This document shows positions 18,053-59,621 of a DNA stretch of 64,000 nucleotides, piece after piece. Origin of the DNA: Botryllus schlosseri (taxonomy: Eukaryota); assembly GCA_051294905.1 (NCBI GenBank), contig CM119371.1, positions 34,102,001 to 34,166,000 of the forward strand, given 5' to 3'. Made by a program: the position numbers and the translations under genes. How positions within the stretch are numbered: the first letter of the stretch is position 1; every line of letters begins with the position of its first letter. The notes beneath the pieces were generated by a model. That model did not search any database. It was not told the origin of the DNA and saw only the letters and a list, made by a program, of their open reading frames with translations.

Positions 18053-18998
18053 CTTTAGACTCTTACAGTCAGACTTACATATATATATACCGAAAATGGT
18101 AGCTGATAGTATTAGTTGTATAAAAAATCGAAAAACGTTGCAAAAATTGCATGAAAAATCGATAAAGTTGCCAAAAGTTGCATGAAAAAATGAACAAAAG
18201 TTGCAATATAAGACTCCTCCAAACACCTTAAAGTACAATACCACATAACTTCTGAGTATTAAGGAAGCTGCCGAAAGTTGCAAAAAAAAAAAAAACGTTG
18301 CAAAAGTTGCAAGAACTTGTCCTACTTGTTATGAAAGACTTTATATTATGCAAATACATTTTCCAAGTTAATGATGACATGCACTGTAATTTATTCCATA
18401 CAATGTTTTTGTTGTCCATTATGATTGATTTTGCATCGATCTTGGTTCGTACCGTTGTTAATCGTATTTCATTCTTGAAATGTATGCGATTTTTAGTATT
18501 CATTATTTCTCTACATACACACGATTCGGGTCCTGAAATTTCAATTCTGAATTGGCAGATGTTGCATTCTTCAAGTGTATGCATTTATTTTTGTCGTTTA
18601 TCGATACTTGAAATAACATGATTTCGGTCCAGGAAATAATTCAATTCTGTATTAAAAGGCATATAATATTTGGTGGAATGATCAGGGAAAGGCGACTTTT
18701 TAGCACAGGGGTACGAATGTCAGCAGTTAACCGGAGATGATCACTTTTGAAATTGCGGATTGCATCTTTGTGACTACTGCAGAATGACCAATGACACTAC
18801 AAATGGGTGTAAATATTCAAAATCCAAAGTGCAAAAAGTATGTTGGAATGGAATCGGGTTGTGCCACTCACAATCGTGCTTGAACGACCCCGACTATGTA
18901 AATATACGCCCGGTTGGGCGTCATCGTCACACGGCTACCGTATGGTGATCGCGCTAATCGCGAGTCTTGAATGTGTGAATTCGATCTTGCGATACCTG

Positions 18999-19042
18999 AG
19001 GAATCCCCTATTGAGATTTATGCAAACCCAAATGTATAAATA
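18999..19042 (+). promoter_or_regulatory. Putative core promoter of E2 copy 1: kappaB-like site plus TATA box
   Basis: AGGAATCCCC (reverse complement GGGGATTCCT) at 18999-19008; TATAAATA at 19035-19042; the TATA-to-ATG segment is conserved with copy 4. Confidence 0.5.
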
Positions 19043-19084: not shown

Positions 19085-19705
19085 ATGCCTGACAAGGAAA
19101 TGGCTATGAAAAGGCTGCAGTACGAGTATAAGAAATTTTTGCAAGAGCCCGACAACCTTCCTATTAGAGCGGGGCCGATCGAAGAGTCGGACATGTATCA
19201 TTGGTGGGCAACGATAGAAGGACCTCCCGGAACACCTTTCGAGGGAGGGGTGTTTCGAATTCTCATCGAATACCCAACAGAATATCCGTTCAAGCCTCCG
19301 AAAATGCGATTCGAAACGAAGATTTTCCATCCTAATATCTGCGGATGGGGTACGGTATCCGTAGATATTCTACAATCGCAATGGTCGCCTGTCCTTACGA
19401 CGTCTAAAGTGCTTTTAACGATATATTCCCTGCTTTCTTCCCCCAATATCGATTACCCTGCAGATGCAGATAGTGCAAATATGTACCGACAGAACCCGAT
19501 TAAATATTCAAAGAAGGCCAAGCGCTGGACGAAGAGGTACGCTATCAGCAACTTTCAACCGCTCAGAGAAAAGCCTGGCATCGGGTATGCGCAAAGCGAA
19601 ATCATAACTGATCAACCTGAGCCCGTCAGCTTATTTTGCGTCCCCGTCGAATATTTAACACCTGTCTTAGAAATGGGTTGGCGCATTTTGTCGCTGTTGT
19701 TTTGA
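19085..19705 (+). CDS. Intronless UBE2D/Ubc4-like E2 (copy 1); catalytic Cys replaced by Ser; about 50-aa C-terminal extension
   Basis: 206-aa ORF with E2 motifs GPPGTPFEGGVF, YPFKPPK, FHPNI, WSP, WTKRYA; GTVSVDIL where UBE2D has GSICLDIL; AATAAA at 19747. Confidence 0.9.
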   Translation: MPDKEMAMKRLQYEYKKFLQEPDNLPIRAGPIEESDMYHWWATIEGPPGTPFEGGVFRILIEYPTEYPFKPPKMRFETKIFHPNICGWGTVSVDILQSQWSPVLTTSKVLLTIYSLLSSPNIDYPADADSANMYRQNPIKYSKKAKRWTKRYAISNFQPLREKPGIGYAQSEIITDQPEPVSLFCVPVEYLTPVLEMGWRILSLLF

Positions 19706-20641
19706 AACAACGATTGGGACGATAGTCTACGACATCCTTGATGTTCAATAAAAGCGATTTAGGCTTTACAACCACGACCGAATATATTTCTCCACCTACT
19801 GACATATCTCATTTGATTTCATTCGCTTATCTATTTTATGCTATCGCAATGCTTCTCATTCACTGTACGTCCATCTTATTTTACATGTTCCAGTATTAAC
19901 ATTCATCGTATTGGTCAAGGTGGATCTTCAAATAAAAGACGTTATAAATATTCGCAATTCAGCGTACATATTACTATTGTTTATTAATATACGTTGGCCA
20001 GTGGGTTCAGGCCAATATTCTTAGCTTGATGGACGCCGAGAGCCGCAGCATATTACAATAGTGGTGTTTAATTCTCTGTCAGAGGGCATTATATGATTAG
20101 ATTACTGGTTCTCAAAGTTTGTTTGATATTGTTTGTTTTTGATATTGAAAAATTTCGCTTCCCCCTTATCGTGATATCACGAAATATATCAAAGAGAGCA
20201 GTCAGTATTCAAGCAATCACGACGGATAGTTTGATAGTATTGAAGTTTATGGCTGTTGATGAGAAAATTCTGAAATATGAAATTCGGACAATGGACAGAG
20301 CAACGACTATGAGATCGAAGTAAATCGCGCCCATCGCGAACAAAATACAGTTAACTTCGATTCCCGGCCCCTTCAGATGCTTCCCCCAGTTTTAGAACCA
20401 CTGGATTGTATGATAGTGTCTGATTGGAACATGAGTGGTCTGAGATCTGATTCCGTACACATCGTCAAAATGAACATTGTCGGCGACAGTGAATCATCGA
20501 TGCGCGAAAAAAAATCAAATTGTTAAGATTCAATTAAAAACGACTAGATATATTGTACCATAGTGACGGGATATCGTGTGTTCGTACCATGAATCGACTG
20601 CGATCATCAACAATACCAAAAGTTTATGAATTAGTCTACAC

Positions 20642-21914: not shown

Positions 21915-22354
21915 ACCAGAGCTGCAACACCAATGGCTTACGACGTCGATTCCAACCGAGGTCAACTCCAGAAATAATAGCTGCGTAAGTGTCGAGAGCT
22001 CAAATGTCACACTCGGGTGTTCTGAAGCTTTTTCAGTACTGAATTTACACGCCTCTTGCGATTGCGAATTATATTCTCAAAGGAAAATTATCGTTCGATA
22101 CTTCCTACACATCACATCATCCAAAACACGAGGTTCGGGCTATGCATTGTCACGGCGTTAACGCTATTTTTATGCCCATACGAAATTATTTCTGATCAAG
22201 TTCAACGGGTGATTATTTTTTGTGAAATGAAAGGTCGCCCATATCTCCATTTCTCCATGTGCATGACGTCATAATTGGTGATACTCGCAAAGTCGACTTG
22301 ACTCAAAGTTTAATACTCCACTCGGTATCGAATCATCTACGATTACATGTATAG
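21915..22354 (+). repeat. About 440-bp repeat (SINE-head fragment joined to MITE-like sequence) with an inverted copy at 40422-40862
   Basis: High reverse-complement identity over the full length by eye. Confidence 0.85.
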
Positions 22355-23429: not shown

Positions 23430-25642
23430 CAGGTGCGGCCAGCCCGTGGCACGCAGGCCAACTTTGGCACACGAGAAGGTTTGGTGTGGCCTGCGAGGCA
23501 GACTTGTACAAACTAAACATTTAGTTAGTTGACGGTCAACTAACTAACAGTTTTTCGAGTAGTTCTAGTTCTAGTTGTAGTTGCAGATTTTGAAAATTGC
23601 GTAGTTCTAGTTCTAGTTGTAGTTGCGGATTTTGAAAATTGCGTAGTTCTAGTTCTAGTTGTAGTTGCAGATTTTGAAAATTCAGTAGTTCTAATTATAG
23701 TTATAGTTGCGCATTTCAAAAAAATATTAGTTGCCGAACAACTAGAAAACACTCATGTGTCCTGCGTGATGAGAACTCTCCTCGCGTGACAAGTGAGGTT
23801 ACTGATGTGATCATGACAAAGGATCAAATGCTCATTGTTGGATCATAGTTAATACATTGATTATGCCGAGTTCACTGAGAACTCGGCAAATTTACCACAA
23901 TCGACAGTCCGCAGCGACACGCGATCTCCCGCTGAGGTTGTTTACTAATTGGAATGTGATCTACTGCTTTGCGCTGACGAGTATTATCTCGGAACTAAGC
24001 TGTCGCGTCTGTTAAACTAACGAGATTTGATTCGTGATGATGATGCCGACCACGTCTGCCCAGGCACAAAGAGAAGACGATCTGGATTCGCCGAAGGTAT
24101 CTTTACAAAGGAAATTGCATAAATTGCCTGGTTCGTCTTCTACTGGCTCTCCAATGCACAAGAAACCGAGACTCTCACTCTTCAACTTTCTACCTCAAAG
24201 TCAGTGTCGTCCGCTTGAAGTTAAATCAGGCCCGTCTAAGGTGAAAAAGTATGCCAGGGAACAGCGACTACCCTTGGGTCAGAATGTGCTAAACTGTTAG
24301 CGGAATATGACCGACTTGCCAGAATTACCAAACTTGGCGAAAGATTTTCTTGGATGACTGCGACATCTGCGCCCAGTGAAAGGGCTTTCTCGCATGCTGG
24401 GATTTTGTATTCCCCAAAGAGAGCAAAACTCAACGAAAAAACGTTTTCGCGACTCATGTTGATTCGCTGCAATCATGCAGCAACAGCTGCAGAAAATGGT
24501 TTAGTTTATCCTGCACTGAATACAGAATAGGTCTGTCTGTCTGATTTGTCAGTAATTTCGCTGTACCGACGCTCATGTGGAAGGCTGGAACGCCGAATTC
24601 GATTAAAATAAAAATGAATGAGTTGATTGAGAATTAAATTTAGTTAGTTGTGTTTTAGTTAGTTAGTTGCCGATATTTAGATTTCGTTAGTTCTAGTTAT
24701 AGTTCTAGTTGCGAGTTTTGAAAATTGAGTAGTTCTAGTTCTAGTTCTAGTTGCAGGATTTGAAAAATGGGTAGTTCTAGTTCTAGTTATAGTTGCGAGT
24801 CTTAAAAATTGAGTAGTTTTAGTTCTAGTTCTATTTGCGCTTTTTGAAAATTCAGTAGTTTGTACAAGTCTGCTGCGAGGTAATTTTCGAAATCATTTAT
24901 AACATCAGGCACAATTGCAAGGTCAACCAAAATTTGATTAGCATGACCGCGAATTTTGATGATGACTGAAACAACAGTTCTGACGCATTGACGTATCCAG
25001 GGGCCAGCCACATTTATCCCAGATCTTCGTATATGACCATAAATTGGAATATTGCATAACAGATTTATTTGACTTGAAATTTTTCTCGGTACTTCGCATG
25101 ATTCATTGTCACTAGATTTCTTGCATTCAGTATTGGAGCCCCCTTCTGAAAATTATAAATACATGCTATTCACAGAATTGAGTCTAACTATATTTGCAAT
25201 TAGGAGATAACGTGTCGTCCAACATGCGGCCTCGCTTGTGCACTCGCGGCGAGATCGTCGACGACGAAACATTTGCACAAAATGAAAGAGGCATGTTCAC
25301 CGATACCGTCGATTTTGCTGTGTCTAAACGTCGAATAATCCTGTCCTTGCCAAATGAGCCCAGTAGTATACAGATACGACCCCCAATGTATGTTAGCAAC
25401 ATATTTATTGATATAATTCAGTCATTATCTTGCAAAAAAATTTCGCGCTTCACGCGACCAGGGCCTGATTGCACACTGCACAGTTGCATGACATATTGTT
25501 ATCAATTTTAGAGCGTATTAATATAAGTCTTGTTTGCATTGTTACCTAATTCGGTTCGCTCCTATCGGACGAATAGAAAAAGGTTATCAACATTCCAGTA
25601 AATCTCATGTGTCCCTTTGGCCGAAAAAGTTGCCCACCCCTA
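23430..25642. mobile_element. Buster/Charlie-type MITE (family of 4269-4966) nested in 23192-26569
   Basis: Termini caggtgcggccagcc / agttgcccaccccta; its interior resumes after 24880 with sequence matching 4320-4460; TSD degenerate. Confidence 0.7.
23499..24872 (+). mobile_element. Internally deleted hAT (Ac/ZBED1-type) element retaining the transposase C-terminal dimerisation domain
   Basis: 17-bp perfect TIR cagacttgtacaaacta; TSD ctgcgagg; (TAGTTC)n arrays; about 24240-24480 translates, with lesions, to ...LAKDFL..TATSAPSERAFSHAGILYSPKRAKLNEKTFSRLMLIRCN. Confidence 0.9.
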
Positions 25643-33842: not shown

Positions 33843-35227
33843 ACTCGACCTCTATGGCCACAGATATTCCTGCCACGCTATAATAGCCGTTGAATGATAC
33901 TGTACTTCGTTTAAAAATTACATGGTCAGTTCCTTTGTCAAATGGGTTTCATTTAAATACCTATTCATAGTCATGCTGTCCTGTCGTTAACTCGTGATAA
34001 GAGCACTCGAAACGCCGTCGAGTTGATAAATTATATTGTAATGAATGTAGTCCTGAGAGTAATTGAAAAAAATGTACAATTTCAAAAAATGTAGCTATAC
34101 ATTTTTCCGCGTTCTCCGCAATGGTTGGCTTGGAACCGTTATCCACTTGATGACAGTATAGAATCAGAAATCATGACAGTGCAAGATTTAACGAACCAAT
34201 CAAAAACGCAGGGGTTTCCAACACGCGTTCCGCCTCTACATTTCGCGAAACAGTTCAACAGTATGCGTTTATGCCTTCCACAATTCTGATATATTATTGA
34301 ATTCCGGCACTATCTGATTTCGAGCCGGTATTTTACAACTGTTTTGCGGGTATAATTAGGGTTACCATATTTGGGAATCGGGAAAGGAGGACACTTTTTC
34401 AAAATGTTCAAACTTAGAATACTGGAGTAAAATCCGGAAAAACGATAAATTTTTCACAATATTATGGTTGGTTGACGAGAAAAGGCCGTCAGCACTTTCG
34501 TTCGAACCACAAATTTCCTATTTAGCGGCATTTATGTCCATTTTCACTCGAATCTATCAACTATCTTATGTTAAACCAAAACTGACGGAGCATGCACAGG
34601 TCCCCGCTGTTCTATTCGTTTCTTCGAGGTGTGAGCAACAGCACGCGCTCCCCAATATCCAAATAAATCTCCCGATATTCCATTGGGACGTAAAATAGGC
34701 TAAATGGTTCGAGTTGATAACGCACAGGTTCGCCTCGCGCTTTACAGGCGCCAGCATTGTCTTCGGACGATGGAACGTTAGTGCTGGCGTACCTCTTCGT
34801 CCATAACTTGGCCGTCTTTGAGTATAACAAAGGGTCCTGTCGATACATAACTGCACTCTCGGTATCCAAATGACTGTTGGCATCGGCAGCGGCAAGCAGG
34901 GAACACATTGATGAAGCAATTTCGACGTCGTAGTGATTGGTGACCATTGCTTCTGCAAAATATCTGTGCATATTGTCCCACTTCCGCTAACATTGAAATG
35001 AAATATCTTGGTCTCGAATCGCATTTTCGGCGGTTTAAACGGATATCTCGCTGAATATTCTATTAATATTTTAAACAATCCGCCTTCAAACGGCGTTCCT
35101 TCTGGTCCTTCGATAGTTGCCCACCGTCGGTACAGATCTGAATCGTCGACCGGCCCCGCTCTAATCGGTAAATTGCTGGGCTCCCGCTGGAATTTTTTGT
35201 ACACGTATCAGTCGCTTTAACGCCATG
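33843..35227. repeat. About 1.4-kb direct segmental duplication of 38006-39410 (E2 plus 3' flank); further partial copy at 32645-32930
   Basis: Continuous alignment by eye of the CDS, the shared MITE fragment and the flank. Confidence 0.9.
34590..35226 (-). pseudogene. E2 copy 2, pseudogene (duplicate of copy 3)
   Basis: Aligns to 38684-39409. It has a 2-nt deletion at codon 7 and a 1-nt deletion near 34912, and HPN is changed to HFN; ORFs 34566-35204 and 34612-34971 are the two broken frames. Confidence 0.9.
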
Positions 35228-38683: not shown

Positions 38684-39409
38684 TCATTTATGCCCATTTT
38701 CACTCGAATCTATCCTCTGTCTTATCTCTAAACTAAACTGACGGAGAGGAGCGGAAAGGCACATGGACGAACATGCACAGGATTCCCATTGTTCTTCGTT
38801 TCTTCGAGGCGTGAGCAACAGCACGCACTCTCCAATATCCAAATAAATCGCCCGATATTGCAATGGGACGTAAAATAGACCAAATTGTTCGGGTTGATAA
38901 CGCACAGGTTCGCCTCGCGCTTTACAGGCGTCAACAATGTCTTCAGACGCTGGAACGTTAGTAGTGGCGTACCTTTTCGTCCATAACTTGGCTGTCTTTG
39001 AGTATAACAAAGGGTCCTGTCGATACATAGTTGCACTCTCGGTATCCAAAAGGTTGTCGGCATCGGGAGCAGCAAGCAGGGAACACATTGATAAAAGCAA
39101 TTTCAACGTCGTAGTGATTGGTGACCATTGCTTTTGCAAAATATCCGTGCATATTGTCCCACTTCTGCTAACATTGGGATGAAATATCTTGGTCTCAAAT
39201 CGCATTTTCGGCGGTTTAAACGGATATTCCGTTGAATATTCGATTATTATTTTAAACAATCCGCCTTCAAACGGCGTTCCTTCGGGTCCTTCGATAGTTG
39301 CCCACCATCGGTACAGATCTGAATCGTCGACCGGCCCCGCTCTAATCGGCGAATTGCTGGGCTCCCGCTGGAATTTCTTGTACTCGTACTGTAGTCGCTT
39401 TAACGCCAT
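38684..39409 (-). CDS. Intronless UBE2D/Ubc4-like E2 (copy 3); HPN and catalytic Cys intact; about 90-aa C-terminal extension
   Basis: 241-aa ORF starting MALKRL, with GPEGTPFEGGLF, YPFKPPK, FHPNVSRSGTICTDIL and WTKRYA. Confidence 0.92.
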   Translation of the reverse strand: MALKRLQYEYKKFQREPSNSPIRAGPVDDSDLYRWWATIEGPEGTPFEGGLFKIIIEYSTEYPFKPPKMRFETKIFHPNVSRSGTICTDILQKQWSPITTTLKLLLSMCSLLAAPDADNLLDTESATMYRQDPLLYSKTAKLWTKRYATTNVPASEDIVDACKARGEPVRYQPEQFGLFYVPLQYRAIYLDIGECVLLLTPRRNEEQWESCACSSMCLSAPLRQFSLEIRQRIDSSENGHK

Positions 39410-40371: not shown

Positions 40372-41904
40372 GTGATACAGTGAAATAGCTATCCGATGTC
40401 GTAATGATACAGTGATCCATACTATACATGGAATCGTAGATGATTCGACGCCGAGCCGAGTATTAAACTTTGAGTCGAGTCGACTCTGCGAGTATCACCA
40501 ATTATGACGTCATGCACATGGAGAAATTGAGATAAGGGCAACCTTTCATTTCACAAATAATAATCAACCGTTGAACTTGATCAGAAATAATTTCGTATGG
40601 GCATAAAAATAGCGCAACGCCATACTTACAATGCATAGCTGGTACCTCGTGTTTTGGATGATGTGATGTGTAGGAAGTATCGAACGATAATTCTCCTTGA
40701 GAATATAATTCGCAATCGCAAGAGGCGTGTAAATTCGGTACTGAAAAAGCTTCAGAACACCCGAGTATGACATTTAAGCTCTCGACACTTACGCAGCTAT
40801 TATTTCTGGAGTTGATTTCGGTCGGACTCGACCTCGTAAGCCATTGGTGTGGCAGCTCTGGTCAGACTTATTATGATAGGCAGCAAAAACTTACATTCAG
40901 CTTTAAACGGGCGCCCAAAGTCATCCCAGCTGTCGTTGTCGCTATGAGAGGTGCCGACGAAACGTACGAGGAGTACGGAATTTATGTATAGCCTATACAT
41001 ATTGACTGAGAGGTGACATTCGTACACAAAACCTATTAACATAACTTATAGTTCTTACTCCTTAACAACCGCATCATACAAGATTACTATTAGGCTACTC
41101 ATGGATTATAGTACATTTTGAAAACAAGAAAATGTTGCTCAGTTCAACAAAGCAAAAATAGAGAAAGAGGCAAATATGGTTGGTAACGACTCTGTAGTCT
41201 TTTCTGTACGTCTGGATGATCGTTTTATAAAGTTAGAAATTATTCTGTTCAGACGTGATCAGTTGTTATGAATCAGCAATACCATTTCCGAAATCCAGAC
41301 AGATCACATTGATCATTTTCGTTATACGAATAAATTTACAAAACAAACATGTCAAATTATGTCATTGCCGTTTTGTCACCCAATTATTTCTGTTATACGA
41401 TTGCTGCATCACTGCATCATTATGACATCGGATAGCTATTTCACTGTATCACTGTAGGCTATACTTCGAGTCATGTTGCAAGATATTGAGAGATACTGTA
41501 AACTGTAAAGTAAATATGGGTGACTCAAAGACCCGATACATAACAGACCTCATACATGGTTTACTGCCTCGAATATAATCGGCACAAGCCCGCTTACGTA
41601 AAAAGTGATGGCACGCGCGGTCTTCAATCTAGCATCCATCTCGGCCTAATAATGGCCCAGGTGATTGGCTTCTATTTTGATCTCTTCAGCTGTGTTTCAG
41701 TTGCCTATCCTTGCAATTCACTGTTCACTTTCCTGGCATTCGCAAAGCCGTGTCTTTGTCAAAGAATTAGCCAAGATAAACCGAGGAGGGTTGTTGTTCT
41801 GATCGTACAAATAAGAAAGGATTCCCTTGCAAATGCTCAAGAGAGAGCGAGAGTGAAAGAGAGAGAGAGAGAGAGTGAGAGAGGAAGCGAACAAACTTAT
41901 TTTT

Positions 41905-47600: not shown

Positions 47601-48315
47601 CACTAGCGAGCATGATTGAATTGGAGATCTAGGCGTGTCTATGAATGCGGCGAATGTTCGGTTAGGTTTGCTGGATTTCCCGCTGCGTAGAAGCCGAGGC
47701 CAGTCAAATGGAAATTTCAGTCATTTTTGAAGTAATAGTATTTACGGTGACCAATTTCGTCACACCGACATGACCAAAAATCGTGTTTCATTTATGCCTG
47801 AAGAGGCAGGGATGTCTTCTAGACTTGTTTTGATCTTGACAAGGGCCTACATCGCCAGTAAATGAAAGAAATTGATGACACATATTAGCTGTAAATTAGT
47901 CCACTTCATTGAAATAGACACGTTAAAACGATGGTGAGATAATTTTCCAATAGAGTAGTTTACACACTGAAATTCACGACCACAATAAGCACGCAAAATA
48001 CGGGTAAATATATTTTTCAAGTGATAGTCAATATCTATATTCTTTATCGGTCCAAGGTGGATTCCTTCACGCTACAATTTGATATTTATGATATTCTATC
48101 ATTTGCTCTGCAGCACTCCTATAGTACTCTTACAGGCGGATTATAAGACTAATTGGCATCGTGACAGATCTTATTCCTATCAAAAGTCATCGTCCTTTTT
48201 TCATGTCATCCTCCACATTCGGTGAATACCATCTAATACAGGGGTGGGCAAACTACGGCCCGCGGGCCGCATGCGGCCCGCCAAACCGTTCTGTGCGGCC
48301 CGCGAGAGTCTAAAG

Positions 48316-50232
48316 CAGAGGTCTCAAACTCAAATGTGCTCGCGGGCCAATTCCTACTTTTTGATGGCGCCGCGGGCCGCAGCACCAATAATAGGGGATT
48401 TCAATGTACTTCAAAGTAGACCCTATTTCCGGGTTTCGAGCATAGGCCTACTCCTGATAACTAGGCTATATTGATCATGTCATTACCGAAGTCAAATAGA
48501 ATCAGCGTTTGATTTGACCTTCGAATGTTGGAACAGATCAATAACAACTTCACATAATGGATACTGTGCCATATAGCAATAGAAATGTGCAATTGCCGAA
48601 AAATCGATTGGTGTTACAGCTGTGAAGCGTAGGCTACGACTAATTAATACTCGCCATATTAAATTGGTGATAATGACATACATAAAGATACCCAATATGA
48701 CACAGGATGTATCCAACTATACATCAAAGGGGTGACATAATGCCAATTGCCACACCTACCTGCTTAGATATCTAAATAAGCTAAGCAATGCAAGCTACGA
48801 CCTTTTGATATTCTATCATTTCTTATATCAGTTTGATATAGTTTGTTCATAGTGTCCTATATGGTGTGGACACAAGTAGATCTCACGGCTCAGTGAAATT
48901 GGTCTACGTCACACTTTCTATTTGGTCAAAGGCAATTTGACGGTAATTTTTGACCGGCTTGTCCAGCATTATCATGGTATCAATGGAAAGCTATCACGGT
49001 ACTGATTGCGAAAATACAAATTTTAGACCAGAGGTCTCAAACACGCGGCCCGCGGGCCGCATGCGGCCCTCGAGACCATTTTGTGCGGCCCGCGACGGCA
49101 TTTGGGATTTCGAAGTATTCGACAATATTTACCTCCACTTTTTTTATGAGAACTTAAAATTCGCTCTAAAACTACTCCAGAAGCCTGAAACTACTCATCA
49201 AATCACCAAACTCATTTACAATGCAACATTCGAGGCTTAGTTTGGGTAGTTCCAGGGCCACGGACGGACAGTCTAAAATTTGTATTTTCGCAATCAGTAC
49301 CGTGATAGCTTTCCATTGATACCATGATAATGCTGGACAAGCCGGTCAAAAATTACCGTCAAATTGCCTTTGACCAAATAGAAAGTGTGACGTAGACCAA
49401 TTTCACTGAGCCGTGAGATCTACTTGTGTCCACACCATATAGGACACTATGAACAAACTATATCAAACTGATATAAGAAATGATAGAATATCAAAAGGTC
49501 GTAGCTTGCATTGCTTAGCTTATTTAGATATCTAAACAGGTAGGTGTGGCAATTGGCATTATGTCACCCCTTTGATGTATAGTTGGATACATCCTGTGTC
49601 ATATTGGGTATCTTTATGTATGTCATTATCACCAATTTAATATGGCGAGTATTAATTAGTCGTAGCCTACGCTTCACAGCTGTAACACCAATGGATTTTT
49701 CGGCAATTGCACATTTCTATTGCTATATGGCACAGTATCCATTATGTGAAGTTGTTATTGATCTGTTCCAACATTCGAAGGTCAAATCAAACGCTGATTC
49801 TATTTGACTTCGGTAATGACATGATCAATATAGCCTAGTTATCAGGAGTAGGCCTATGCTCGAAACCCGGAAATAGGGTCTACTTTGAAGTACATTGAAA
49901 TCCCCTATTATTGGTGCTGCGGCCCGCGGCGCCATCAAAAAGTAGGAATTGGCCCGCGAGCACATTTGAGTTTGAGACCTCTGTTTTAGACTGTCCGTCC
50001 GTGGCCCTGGAACTACCCAAACTAAGCCTCGAATGTTGCATTGTAAATGAGTTTGGTGATTTGATGAGTAGTTTCAGGCTTCTGGAGTAGTTTTAGAGCG
50101 AATTTTAAGTTCTCATAAAAAAGTGGAGGTAAATATTGTCGAATACTTCGAAATCCCAAATGCCGTCGCGGGCCGCACAAAATGGTCTCGAGGGCCGCAT
50201 GCGGCCCGCGGGCCGCGTGTTTGAGACCTCTG
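48316..50232. mobile_element. hAT MITE (about 955 bp) containing an inverted copy of itself
   Basis: Termini cagaggtctcaaac / gtttgagacctctg; perfect TSD gtctaaag. Confidence 0.92.
49029..49983. mobile_element. Inverted, near-identical inner copy of the 48316-50232 element
   Basis: Same termini; perfect TSD ttttagac (49021-49028 and 49984-49991). Confidence 0.92.
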
Positions 50233-55412: not shown

Positions 55413-55834
55413 ATGCCTGATAGAGAAATATCTATGAAGAGGCTTCAGTACGAATACAAGAAATTTTTGCAAGAGCCGGGTGAACTTTCTATAAGAGCAG
55501 GGCCAATCGATAAATCGAACTTGCATCATTGGTGGGCGACGATAAGAGGACCACGCGGAACACCATTTGAAGAGGGGGTATTTCGAATTACCATCGAATA
55601 TCCAACAGAATATCCCTTCAAACCCCCGAAAATGCGATTCGAAACGAAGATTGTCCATCCAAATATCTGCAGATGGGGTACGATATGCGTGGATATTTTG
55701 CAAAAGCAATATTCGCCGGCCGTTACGACGTCGAAAGTGCTTTTGTCGATATGTTCTTTGCTTGCTTCTCCTGATCTCGATCACTCTGTAGACCCGAGAG
55801 TGCGATTATGTACCTGGAGAACCCGGTGCTATAT
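55413..55834 (+). pseudogene. E2 copy 4 (Cys retained), frameshifted and truncated by LINE insertion
   Basis: HPNICRWGTICVDIL; a 1-nt deletion near 55794 shifts ESAIMYLENPVLY into another frame; homology ends at a poly(T) run at 55834. Confidence 0.88.
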
Positions 55835-56510
55835 TTTTTTTTCAGCTCAGGTCGTGCCATGTTCAGCCATTCTCATGAGTTTGAGCGGCTTTCGGTATCG
55901 TTCGTTTTTCCGGTTCTCAGGCCTGCAGACCTTCATGGCAGTTTCATCATTGCTTATCAAATTTATTTATTCGGTAAAAAGAGGCATAGACATATAGACA
56001 TTGATATAGCATTATGCATTGTTGGTGGGTGTGGATTGGTCTTCGTTTCTTCCTGTGTCTTTTCCGTTTTCTCTTTAGATGACATCTTTCAGGGCTTTCA
56101 GGCTTTCCGGAAGTAGTTCCTGTGTTTCTATTCTTTTAAGAGCTGTCCTCCTTATCTTCTTGCATGTTGTTTTGACGTATTGCTCGGGGTCTTCCTGGTA
56201 TTTGTTTTCTACTTCAAGGTATCTTCTGTTTCCGATAACTTTATTTTTGAATATCGCTATCATGAGTGATGTTGCTGTATCCATTCTGACTCTGTTTCTG
56301 CCAAGAATGCTGTCGTCGTCGAGGTTGACGTTTTTTCTTGTTGCGTCTGATAGTATGCTTTGCATCATCCTGATCATCTCTTGGGATGCTTTACAGTGAT
56401 ATAGCAGATGGGACATTGTTTCATTCCTGGCCTTGCATTGCCTGCAGTTTGTCAGGGCTATTTTGCCTGTGTGGTGTTGGAGGATGTTTTTAGTAAGCCA
56501 TGTGGGGACG
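55834..56510 (-). mobile_element. 3' fragment of an L1/Tx1-type LINE, antisense to the E2
   Basis: Minus strand NCRQCKARNETMSHLLYHC (CCHC knuckle) followed by ...SILG...LMIAIFKNKVIGNR, stop at 56075, 3' UTR and A9 tail. Confidence 0.75.
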
Positions 56511-56697: not shown

Positions 56698-59621
56698 ATG
56701 CAATGGAATTGTCAAGAAATCCACCGCAAAATTCATGAGTTGAAATATTTTCTGGAGCGCACCTACCCAAACCCTGATGTCATTGCCCTCCAAGAGACCC
56801 ACCTCGTCGCCAAATATACACCTAAGATACCGAATTATGTTCTAGTTAGGAATGATCGTGACATACACGGCGGCGGTGTGTGCCTATTCATTAAAGCGGG
56901 ATATCTTTCACACAGACAAAAATTGCTGATATCGAGCCGATCGAACTTCAAATAGTCCACCTAGGAGGTATTACAATCGTCAACGCATATGTCCCTCCGA
57001 ACAAGTCCATACCCGGATCGGTTTTTCGCAAGTCGTTCGCGAAATTCGACTCTTGTGTGATCATCGTTGGCGACCTCAACGCGCATCATCCGATGTGGGG
57101 AAGCAATCATCCGAACGCTTATGGTAGGCACATTTTATCTGTGATGGAGGACCTGGAACTAGTGATGATCAACACTGCCATACCCACCCGTATCAGCTTA
57201 TCCTCAACCAGTCTCGGCGCAACATCGTTACTTGATCTTACTATTGCGTCAAAAGATATTGCGCACAGAGTGCGAACAACAATCACGGACGAACTGTTTG
57301 GCAGTGATCACTATGTCATATTGAACAGCCTCGACATGGAAGTCAATATCCAAGATCAACATCACCCATCGTGGTCACTCCGTCGGGCCAAGTGGCCACA
57401 TTTCAAAAACATTTGCCATCAGCAACTCTCCAATCTAAGTAACGACGCCGGTCAATTGACGATCGAAGATATAACTAACGTCATATTCCAAGCCGCTAAG
57501 CATACCATTCCGCTTACAAAGGAAGTTAGAAAAAGTAGTGTGCCTTGGTGGAAGTATAGCTGTACACGAGCTGTCCGGTTAAAACGGGCCTCTTATCAGA
57601 AAATGAAGCGATCCTTTAGCGTTGATGATGTTATCAAGTTCAAGCAACATCGAGCGCGTACGAGAAAAACGCTACTCGATGCAAAACGATCTTACTGGGA
57701 GTCTTTTTGTAACAGCCTAAATCGCAATTCCAAATTGACGAAAGTCTGGCGCGTAATTAGTTTAATGTCAGGCTCGCGCTCGTGGAATCAAATACACCAA
57801 TTGGTCTCGAACGGCGCGCTAATCACAGACAATGTAAACATGGCAAACACACTGGCTCGGCATTTCGCGTCAACCAGTAGTGATGAAAATATAGACGTAT
57901 TACACCGCCAACGTCGCTCCGATTTCTGCAGCGACACTATTCCCGCAGTCCTAGCCGAAACTCCGAGCGATGACATTATGAACCTACCTTTCACCCGCTC
58001 AGAATTGTCTGATGTTTTGCGACTTAGGAAGAATACTGCGCCGGGCATTGATGGAATTTGCTCCGCAATGCTTCTAAACCTCAGTGAGTATAGCCTCCAA
58101 ACACTTTTGGATTCTATCAATAATTTGTGGGTTTCGGGCCAGTGCCCAGCATCTTGGCGGCATTCAATTATTGTGCCTATTTTAAAAGGTAGCAAACCCG
58201 CGAATAATCCCTCTTCTTATAGACCAATTTCTCTGACGAGCAACATCTGTAAGACAATGGAAAGGTTAATTAATAACAGACTAACTTGGTGGCTTGAACG
58301 GAATAGAATACTGCACCCACGTCAATGCGGCTTTCGACGCAAACGGTCTACTCGAGATTGCATAATGTCACTACACGACGATATCTATAAATCATTATTC
58401 AATAAAAGATTCGTTTTAGCGGTGTTCTTGGACTTTGAAAAGGCCTACGACATGATTTGGAGAGACGGACTCGTACTTAAACTGCGGAAAATTGGCCTCA
58501 CAGGAAACATACTGCGGTGGGTGCATTCATTCATTAACAACAGAACTTTTCAGGTTCGTCTCGGTAACACCTTATCAGACACATTTGCGCTCGATAATGG
58601 TATTCCACAAGGAAGCGTGTTGTCTCCGACTTTGTTTGCAATCATGATCAATGACCTCCCTCATGACCTTTCGACTAACATCAATGTATTTGCAGATGAC
58701 GTATGCATTTGGGATATCGGACTAAAAGCTTGTGATATAGCCTCAAACGTGCAAGCCTCGCTCAACTCCATTCAGGAGTGGTGCCATCATTGGGGATTCA
58801 AAATTAACGCAAAAAAGTCGGCCAGTGTGTTGTTCACGAGAAAGCGCAAGTACCCTAATATCAATTTACTCATCGGACAGGTCACATTGCGCTTAGAACG
58901 AGAGTTTAAATATCTAGGGATGATATTTGATGCAAAACTCAACTATGGTCCGCATTCGCGTATGGTAGTCGCAAAGTGCTCAAGACGGCTCAATGTATTA
59001 AGGGCATTGGCTGGTACTACCTGGGGTGCCTCGAAGTCTTGCCTTATGATCGTATACAAAACTTTGATTAGATCAGTTATGGAGTATGGTATTGAGGCGT
59101 ATTTATTCTCACCAAAATACGAATTGAAAGCGCTACAGTTGCTTCAGAACAAAGCGCTGAGAACATGCAGTGGTGCAATGTCGAGTACACCATTGTATGT
59201 ATTACAGCACTCGTGTCATGAACTGGCTATGCACTTGCGACATCTGCAAGCCTGCCTCGACTATCGCTGCCACATCATGGCAATCGAAAACCACCCATGT
59301 ACATCGCTAACAGAGCAGAGTTGGCATGAAATTTTTCCAGATTCATTTCGATTCGGAACTTTTAATATGCTCACCAGGTTGAATGAGGGCATAAAAGACT
59401 TGAAAATAGCAGAATATAATCTTTATCCCGATGCTCCTTGGAATGAACAACCATGTTACACCGTCGATACGCACTTGCAATCGATCATATCCAACATGCA
59501 GCACCCTGATGTAATCAAGTTTGAATCCAACCACTATATTATGTCTACATACGATTCTTATATACAAATATTTACTGATGGATCGAAAATGAAATTTAGA
59601 TGTGGGGCAGGAGTAATGTAG
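56698..59621 (+). mobile_element. I-group (I/Nimb-like) LINE ORF2: APE endonuclease, reverse transcriptase and start of RNase H; one frameshift; 3'-truncated
   Basis: Motifs LQET, GGGV, NAYVPP, GDLNAHH, SDH; YRPISL, QCGFR, LDFEKAYD, GIPQGSVLSP, FADD, KYLG; IFTDGSK just before the stop. The frame changes near 56900-56950. Confidence 0.93.

Follow-up and report, generated by a model that had tools for sequence, protein, structure and literature searches.

Ubiquitin-conjugating enzymes (E2s) carry ubiquitin as a thioester on a catalytic cysteine, and two kinds of described protein without that cysteine come closest to the gene considered here. Ubiquitin E2 variant (UEV) domains are E2 relatives without catalytic activity that serve in regulation or in ubiquitin binding, according to PMC12513931 and PMC4481407. 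The other kind is engineered: the Ube2D2~ubiquitin (Ub) oxyester conjugate (PDB 4AUQ) is a stable mimic of E2~Ub, according to passages of PMC4822130. The thioester, oxyester and UEV chemistry invoked in an earlier note on this DNA agrees with these sources, in which the oxyester is used as a stable mimic (PMC4822130) and UEVs are dead enzymes (PMC12513931). Here we describe copy 1, an E2 gene of the UBE2D (UbcH5) type that has a serine codon at the position of the thioester cysteine. It lies in a 64,000-nucleotide stretch of the Botryllus schlosseri genome (contig CM119371.1; C1:34102001-34166000 of genome G000), referred to as the window, and the positions given below are window positions. 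We consider copy 1 to be a nascent pseudogene, a recently disabled duplicate, with a probability of about 0.6.

A serine codon at the thioester position of copy 1

The copy 1 open reading frame (ORF) is translated into a protein of 206 amino acids containing FHPNICGWGTVSVDILQSQW, and its active-site peptide is FHPNICGWGTVSVDIL. The earlier note had described an intact E2 frame with the catalytic cysteine changed to serine, and both parts of that description hold: the 206 codons are uninterrupted, and TCC stands in the active-site column (residue 92, Table 1). Copy 1 carries no stop and no frameshift, the lesions by which a pseudogene is recognised. Among the 120 best database relatives, the residue 92 column is cysteine in 118, arginine in one, tyrosine in one and serine in none. 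The two exceptions are P0040 (Arg) and P0073 (Tyr; its source name is that of an Adineta steineri protein), and natural UBE2D-like sequences without the cysteine therefore occur elsewhere, at about 2%. The His-Pro-Asn (HPN) columns are nearly invariant in the same relatives (H in 120/120, P in 120/120 and N in 119/120), and copy 1 keeps all three residues. The top-ranked UBE2D1 chains show lysine in the residue 92 column ('gsikldil'); these are presumably engineered C85K conjugate mimics. A C85K UbcH5b entry (9yea) is among the structure-search matches of copy 1.

Apart from this residue, the encoded protein is an ordinary E2. The Pfam family UQ_con is matched over profile positions 1-139 of 140, and the Pfam scan gave no other family at an expect value (E) of 0.01 or less and no UEV profile. 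The closest solved structures by sequence are human UBE2D1, UBE2D2 and UBE2D3 (about 50% identity, E 4e-47 and worse). The structure was modelled with AlphaFold2 on an alignment of 120 relatives, as the earlier note had proposed, and the UBC core is predicted with confidence. The predicted local distance difference test score (pLDDT) exceeds 90 across most of residues 1-154; in blocks of ten over residues 1-150 it ranges from 86 to 97, except for residues 91-100 (68). The top Foldseek match of the model is UbcH5A (3ptf_B; E 6e-19, template-modelling (TM) score 0.96, root-mean-square deviation (rmsd) 1.2 Å over 153 columns), and UbcH5-type matches as a group have TM scores of 0.93-0.96. Copy 1 retains HPN, Asp94, the YPFKPP E3-contact region, the four-helix layout and all of the C-terminal helices. 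It has the UBC fold by sequence profile and by structure, and lacks the active-site cysteine of E2s. The C-terminal extension is predicted to be disordered (pLDDT below 50 at residues 161-198). A membrane anchor at the hydrophobic end of the tail was considered and set aside, as this end contains Glu, Arg and Trp and is modelled only as a short low-confidence helix (residues 196-205; mean pLDDT of the last blocks 45 and 56).

A six-frame search of the genome (495 Mb, 219 contigs) with copy 1 gave at least 115 family matches. About 25 intronless copies form a tandem array at 34.10-34.50 Mb of the same contig, of which the window covers 34.102-34.166 Mb; the remaining matches are dispersed, and many are near-identical ORFs of 160, 172 or 173 amino acids. 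This UBE2D-like expansion is very large for an E2. The sequences of 100 matching places were fetched and copy 3 was added from the window; the 12 weakest matches (E 7.6e-10 or worse) were excluded. Residue 92 is cysteine in 99 of the 102 alignments that span it; as loci L004 and L005 overlap, this total includes two genes twice. The three alignments without cysteine are copy 1 (Ser), L029 (Trp) and L097, the last being unreliable (37% identity, with the alignment stopping at residue 92 itself). L029 (G000:C152:12183-13556) is a second loss of the catalytic cysteine in the family, with TGG in GTIWVDIL plus a stop and a frameshift. In 17 close relatives the codon at this site is TGC (13), TGT (3) or TGG (1, the broken L029), and TGC becomes TCC by a single G>C transversion. 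Serine at the catalytic site is unique to copy 1 in this genome. Within the window, tblastn with copy 1 revealed three further copies. The earlier note had read GTIC(T/V)DIL in them, which is confirmed by GTICTDIL in copies 2 and 3 and by HPNICRWGTICVDIL in copy 4.

The serine is also derived. In a collection of 5.8 billion proteins, the sole close relative of copy 1 is P0001 (205 amino acids, 76% identical), which has the same C-terminal extension. Copy 1 and P0001 are reciprocal best matches (E 9e-103 for P0001 against copy 1; 2e-89 for the next match in this genome) and sisters in the protein tree (bootstrap 85). P0001 reads HPNICRCGTVCVDTL and GTVCVDTL, so that the catalytic cysteine and the cysteine of HPNIC are both present. 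Since this sister has the catalytic cysteine, Ser92 arose after the split from the P0001 lineage.

The second cysteine, Cys86, has a different history. Its codon is TGC in copy 1, L002, L003 and L016 (copy 4), AGC in L006 and L007 (copy 2), and GAC in L004 and L005; among the 120 database relatives only P0001 has cysteine in this column. The earlier note was right that copies 1 and 4 have the HPNIC cysteine in common, yet copy 4 is a pseudogene. All four carriers other than copy 1 (L002, L003, L016 and P0001) keep the catalytic cysteine, and because the two cysteines coexist in them, Cys86 is older than Ser92, inherited and not compensatory. The earlier proposal of an alternative thiol at this site is weakened accordingly.

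The serine codon was also found outside the assembled genome. In run X10, from another sample and another study (its being RNA is a presumed label only), record 4 is a contig of 133 nucleotides (19303-19435, depth 8.6) that spans the Ser92 codon. It differs from the window at only two positions, 19376 (TCG>ACG, S98T) and 19394 (CTT>TTT, L104F), both nonsynonymous; Leu104 is conserved in at least 90% of the database relatives. As this contig matches the window at the Ser92 codon, TCC is present on a distinct haplotype. The similarity of the other X10 contigs is confined to the conserved central part of the gene, and most of them diverge as paralogues at 19332 or 19358; one reads TGC ACG GAC ATT and represents a cysteine-bearing relative, which leaves record 4 as the only copy-1-like contig. 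The TCC codon is thus not an assembly error, having been found in a contig from one independent sample, which answers the doubt that the earlier note had raised about the assembly. Run X5 (share 0.14) gave short pieces, none of them across the Ser92 codon. For the 1-kb stretch compared with public runs, four DNA runs that probably come from the source sample (X1-X4) contain 81-96% of the sampled words, and no RNA run was reported. Two bulk RNA-seq runs gave no copy-1-specific reads in 6.9 million records of X17 (about 6% of the run) and 10 million records of X18 (about 13%). Each of these runs contained two partly fitting reads that continue unlike the copy 1 stretch. The missing reads are a weak indication of low expression in those samples, and no more.

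Relaxed constraint and the status of copy 1

Copy 1 belongs to a group of array copies with a long C-terminal tail, which form a clade with support of 96 in the protein tree. Five of the eight long-tail copies in this genome are broken, namely L002 (two stops), L003 (one stop), L004 (one stop), copy 3 and copy 4; the three with an open frame are copy 1, L005 and copy 2. In the window, pseudogenes make up two of the three copies with which copy 1 can be compared, among them copy 4, with which it shares HPNIC. At 66 core positions conserved in the family, copy 1 and P0001 each deviate 8 times and the other long-tail copies 5-12 times, compared to 0-1 deviations in short-tail array copies and 0-7 in intact copies of other subfamilies. 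Because about 12% of the conserved core sites are substituted per copy, the loss of the cysteine in one of eight copies is unremarkable under relaxed constraint. The PNPDDPM loop beside the active site (copy 1 residues 121-129, 19445-19471) has diversified in the long-tail clade (NIDYPA, NAENLT, DLDHPV, DLDNPM and DADNLL). Its aspartate, present in 101 of the 120 database relatives, is replaced in every long-tail member by Tyr, Asn or His (Tyr in copy 1); presumably it corresponds to Asp117 of UBE2D. This diversification could reflect altered lysine reactivity or plain decay.

The ratio of nonsynonymous to synonymous substitution rates (dN/dS, omega) places copy 1 near the broken copies. Pairwise dN/dS is 0.20-0.32 between copy 1 and its closest paralogues, compared to 0.04-0.12 for intact short-tail pairs and 0.41-0.77 where a broken copy is part of the pair. 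Decomposed by hand over three taxa (copy 1, L003 and L005), these distances give the copy 1 branch a dN of about 0.075-0.083 and a dS of about 0.27-0.34. In a branch-model codon likelihood analysis (GY94-type, F3x4 frequencies, 10 taxa, 148 core codons), omega on the copy 1 terminal branch was 0.33-0.34 over three topologies (p = 0.004-0.011 against omega = 1). The value was similar on the terminal branch of L002, which has two in-frame stops (0.38-0.41, p = 0.007-0.010), and much lower on those of the intact copies L006 (0.04) and L013 (0.065) (p < 0.0001 in both). In a four-class model, omega was 0.31 on copy 1, 0.43 on the tips of broken copies and 0.069 on those of healthy copies; membership of copy 1 in the broken class was not rejected (p = 0.47), while membership in the healthy class was (p = 0.0008). 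Relative to functional paralogues, copy 1 has evolved under relaxed constraint, as an average over a long branch. The C-terminal extension has an omega of 0.72, not different from 1 (p = 0.10).

We propose the following course of events. The setting would be a fast-turnover, lineage-specific array of intronless UBE2D/UbcH5-like genes, in whose largely decaying long-tail subclade constraint may already have been relaxed or altered before the cysteine was lost. One G>C transversion, from TGC to TCC, would then have removed the thioester nucleophile of copy 1. The product, if made, would have a normal UBC fold and would form no E2~ubiquitin thioester, a loss of activity expected from E2 chemistry. 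By analogy with engineered Cys-to-Ser UBE2D, Ser92 would at best be loaded slowly by the E1 enzyme as a stable and unreactive oxyester. The frame, the TATA box and the poly(A) signal would so far have been spared. A new function appears improbable to us, and the change is read as loss of function in a redundant paralogue because there is no sign of conservation or expression. If transcribed, copy 1 could act as a weak dominant-negative, which the data neither require nor exclude.

Several observations weigh against a nascent pseudogene. HPN, Asp94, the TATA box and AATAAA are all kept. A kappaB-like motif in the promoter suggests inducible rather than constitutive expression, and the blank RNA-seq result comes without a positive control, paralogues having given at most partial reads in X17 and X18. 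On its terminal branch, copy 1 has an omega significantly lower than 1 (p = 0.004-0.011). This is weakened as evidence of function because the broken L002 behaves alike, and on branches of this length an omega below 1 means only that constraint acted on the lineage during part of its history. Copy 1 is also no faster than the cysteine-bearing P0001: the branch lengths are 0.183 and 0.176, and Tajima counts for copy 1 vs. P0001 with five outgroups are 13 vs. 12, 11 vs. 11, 10 vs. 13, 8 vs. 12 and 12 vs. 11. As copy 1 is not accelerated compared to P0001, the raised rate is a property of the clade and precedes the loss of the cysteine. The open frame itself is the last of these observations. Random substitutions in the copy 1 coding sequence create stops in 5% of cases, and their nonsynonymous and synonymous shares are 0.71 and 0.24, close to 3:1. 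The frame survives with a probability of 0.21 once 0.05 neutral substitutions per site have accumulated and of 0.04 once 0.10 have, values that count substitutions alone and would be lower with indels, whose rate was assumed. Set against a terminal dS of about 0.3, the open frame implies that copy 1 has been free of selection for at most about the last third of its branch. Neutral drift is thereby limited to about 0.1 substitutions per site or less, and therefore either the loss of the cysteine is recent or the frame is still selected. An open frame with dN/dS below 1 on a long branch should be treated with caution and is no proof of present function, as a paralogue with two stops gives equal statistics.

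The open frame is the main argument for the strongest alternative and is the reason why the probability of a pseudogene is held at the value given above. Under this alternative copy 1 is a selected pseudoenzyme, a cysteine-less E2 that binds E1, E3s or ubiquitin non-productively and modulates the catalytic paralogues as a dominant-negative, an E3 competitor or an oxyester trap for ubiquitin that loads and discharges slowly. It would explain why the ORF, the promoter elements and the poly(A) signal are intact despite a long terminal branch, and it fits the confident UBC core that superposes on UbcH5A (TM 0.96, rmsd 1.2 Å), the kept HPN, Asp94 and YPFKPP region, the omega below 1, the lack of acceleration compared to P0001 and the recurrence of TCC in the second sample. 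In passages of PMC4822130, moreover, the oxyester conjugate of UBE2D2 with ubiquitin adopts the closed state with a RING E3. However, the nearest relative P0001 has no serine, as is the case for all 120 best database relatives, and the rate signature of copy 1 is that of the broken copies and unlike that of the healthy ones. Both differences seen in the X10 contig change an amino acid, the sampled parts of X17 and X18 yielded no specific RNA reads, and pLDDT falls to 68 at residues 91-100, around the active site. We therefore regard a selected pseudoenzyme as unlikely. The decoy, E3 competitor or ubiquitin trap put forward in the earlier note found no positive support, given the cysteine in P0001, a rate equal to that of the broken paralogues and the lack of specific reads.

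A working enzyme, with Cys86 as a relocated nucleophile or Ser92 as a true oxyester intermediate, is far less probable still. Cys86 lies six residues before Ser92, on the loop leading to the active site, and E2s of the J2 family can act on hydroxyl groups of substrates, according to PMC11649903 and PMC4822130. Cys86, however, predates the loss of the catalytic cysteine and so is no replacement for it, three of its four other carriers are pseudogenes, and no E2 that naturally uses a serine or a relocated nucleophile appeared in literature searched at the level of titles and abstracts. It is hardly credible that TCC arose as a fault of sequencing or assembly, or that it is confined to the individual sequenced: the codon is one base away from the TGC of the family, but the X10 contig spanning the codon departs from the window only at the two positions given above and places TCC on a distinct haplotype.

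The array, its promoters and its element-borne relatives

The features of copy 1, the other copies in the window and the ORFs of a related element are listed in Table 1.

Table 1. Coordinates of the copy 1 gene, the further E2 copies in the window and the ORFs of the E2-bearing element (window positions unless a locus is given).
Feature	Position	Strand	Description
kappaB-like palindrome GAGGAATCCCC	18998-19008	+	About 30 nt 5' of the TATA box; 1 mismatch to GGGRNWYYCC
TATA box TATAAATA	19035-19042	+	43 nt 5' of the ATG
Copy 1 ORF	19085-19705	+	Intronless, uninterrupted, 206 codons; stop TGA at 19703-19705
UBC core domain	19112-19528	+	Residues 10-148; Pfam UQ_con, E 3.5e-43
HPN motif (His82-Pro83-Asn84)	19328-19336	+	Kept; codons read directly
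Cys86 codon TGC (HPNIC cysteine)	19340-19342	+	Aligned with the Asn after HPNI in UBE2D1
Ser92 codon TCC	19358-19360	+	Thioester-cysteine position; codon read and alignment
C-terminal extension	19547-19702	+	Residues 155-206; long-tail subclade only; common SLFCVPVEYLTP block in the alignment
AATAAA, polyadenylation-signal-like hexamer	19747-19752	+	42 nt 3' of the stop; read from sequence only
Copy 3	34633-35207	-	Broken: two frameshifts, HFN for HPN; Cys codon kept
Copy 2 (L007)	38684-39409	-	Open long-tail paralogue with Cys, no stops
Copy 4 (L016)	55413-55840	+	Broken: frameshift after codon 127, homology ends about 15 codons on
Element ORF	L101:5643-6194	-	
Element ORF	L101:8989-9495	+	
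Element ORF	L102:5362-6420	-	
Element ORF	L102:7260-8084	-	

The TATA position is kept in L002, L006, L003 and L016 and is followed by a common CGTCGAGCGATTCAATAG block. In the closest array copies a kappaB-like palindrome lies about 35-45 nucleotides upstream of the TATA box; copy 1 has only a degenerate form of it. Of the 16 closest array copies, 10 (L002, L004-L007 and L010-L014) have at the corresponding site a strict match to GGGRNWYYCC, which we take to be the kappaB consensus, and none of 25 other copies has one. These motifs suggest that the array is under inducible expression of the Rel/NF-kappaB type.

One dispersed E2 family (L017-L020, 3.4 kb each) is embedded in repeated DNA whose copies are 97.5% identical over more than 3.2 kb. 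This DNA belongs to an element with genes for two proteins of the Bcl-2 family (E 7.5e-20 and 5e-22), for an rve integrase that has a chromodomain and for a packaging ATPase of the Pox_A32 type. From this gene set we presume the element to be Maverick/Polinton-like. The element-borne E2s nest among the array copies in the trees. The array in the window as part of such an element was considered and rejected, because ten translated element ORFs gave no tblastn match in the window. A title- and abstract-level literature search, with subscription journals outside its coverage, returned no report of E2 plus Bcl-2 cargo in Mavericks or adintoviruses. A far-reaching scenario would unite these observations. 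Copy 1 would be a naturally selected dead E2 (a dominant-negative or an oxyester trap) in a stress- or immune-inducible host array with the kappaB-like palindrome and TATA box upstream of its genes. Maverick/Polinton-like elements scattered through the genome would carry relatives of this array along with Bcl-2-like genes; array and element-borne E2s would interact, perhaps by competing for the same E3s or as targets of the same factors, and the cysteine-less copy would act as a decoy or a brake. We consider this scenario improbable. The family context as such, with more than 100 intronless UbcH5-like copies, the carriage of some of them as element cargo beside Bcl-2-like genes and a kappaB-like promoter motif in the host array, is the more promising lead.

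Other repeats accompany the E2 copies in the window. An ORF of 908 amino acids (56895-59621, plus strand) encodes endonuclease (Exo_endo_phos_2, 1.1e-21) and reverse transcriptase (RVT_1, 3.2e-38) domains. It is a retrotransposon of the long interspersed nuclear element (LINE) type and follows the truncated copy 4 at a distance of about 1 kb. An inverted repeat of 725 nucleotides (48304-49028 / 49271-49995, 99% complementary, 242-nucleotide spacer) is probably a foldback repeat or one resembling a miniature inverted-repeat transposable element (MITE); part of it matches L101:7331-7687 at 79%. A tandem repeat of 42 nucleotides is present in two blocks about 1.1 kb apart (23518-23774 and 24646-24902). 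Further inverted repeat copies (21915-22354 / 40422-40862, in pieces of 166-193 nucleotides that are 94-95% complementary) flank the region between copies 1 and 2 and may reflect an inverted duplication of a segment of the array.

Comparison with known systems

Copy 1 is most similar to the class-I E2s UBE2D1, UBE2D2 and UBE2D3 (UbcH5a, b and c), with which it has in common the UQ_con domain, HPN, the aspartate two residues past the active site, the YPFKPP loop and the four-helix layout. It differs from them in having serine for the thioester cysteine, tyrosine for the loop aspartate and a poorly predicted C-terminal extension of 52 residues; its gene, moreover, has no intron and belongs to a family with at least 115 matches in the genome. 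A further difference concerns Ser22 of UBE2D, which aligns with residue 28 of copy 1 (19166-19168). This residue is arginine in copy 1 and arginine or lysine in the whole expanded family. The substitution S22R abolishes non-covalent backside binding of ubiquitin. The best PDB matches likewise carry arginine at this site ('hcragp'), and a Ube2d2-S22R entry is among the structural matches.

The engineered UBE2D mutants, Cys-to-Ser for the oxyester and Cys-to-Lys for the isopeptide, are altered at the same residue, and Cys-to-Ser is the very replacement seen in copy 1; the conjugate chain 4auq_A is among both the sequence and the structure matches. These mutants are laboratory constructs charged in vitro, whereas copy 1 is natural, is known from sequence and has NIDYPA where the neighbouring loop of these mutants reads NPDDP-. 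A literature search at title and abstract level, with subscription journals outside its coverage, gave no report of an E2 of the UBE2D type with a natural Cys-to-Ser change.

The UEVs (UBE2V1/2-Mms2, the UEV domain of Tsg101 and AKTIP/Pendolino) resemble copy 1 in combining a UBC-like fold with the lack of the catalytic cysteine. UEVs are, however, old families conserved across species, while copy 1 is a young variant of a single genome whose sister P0001 keeps the cysteine. UEVs of the UBE2V type lack HPN and the C-terminal helices. Copy 1 keeps both and nests in the tree within cysteine-bearing UBE2D-like paralogues. If the serine form were selected, it would be a naturally evolved version of the Cys-to-Ser stable-conjugate trick, and the origin of a young UEV-like pseudoenzyme would have been caught in the act.

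Nascent pseudogenes with an open frame are the last system for comparison. Copy 1 is like them in having lost an essential residue within a large tandem family, in its broken siblings and in its raised dN/dS; it differs in that it shows no stop, frameshift or loss of the promoter, and its status as a pseudogene is accordingly our inference. On present evidence, copy 1 indicates that in a rapidly duplicating family the catalytic residue can go before any frame-breaking lesion appears.

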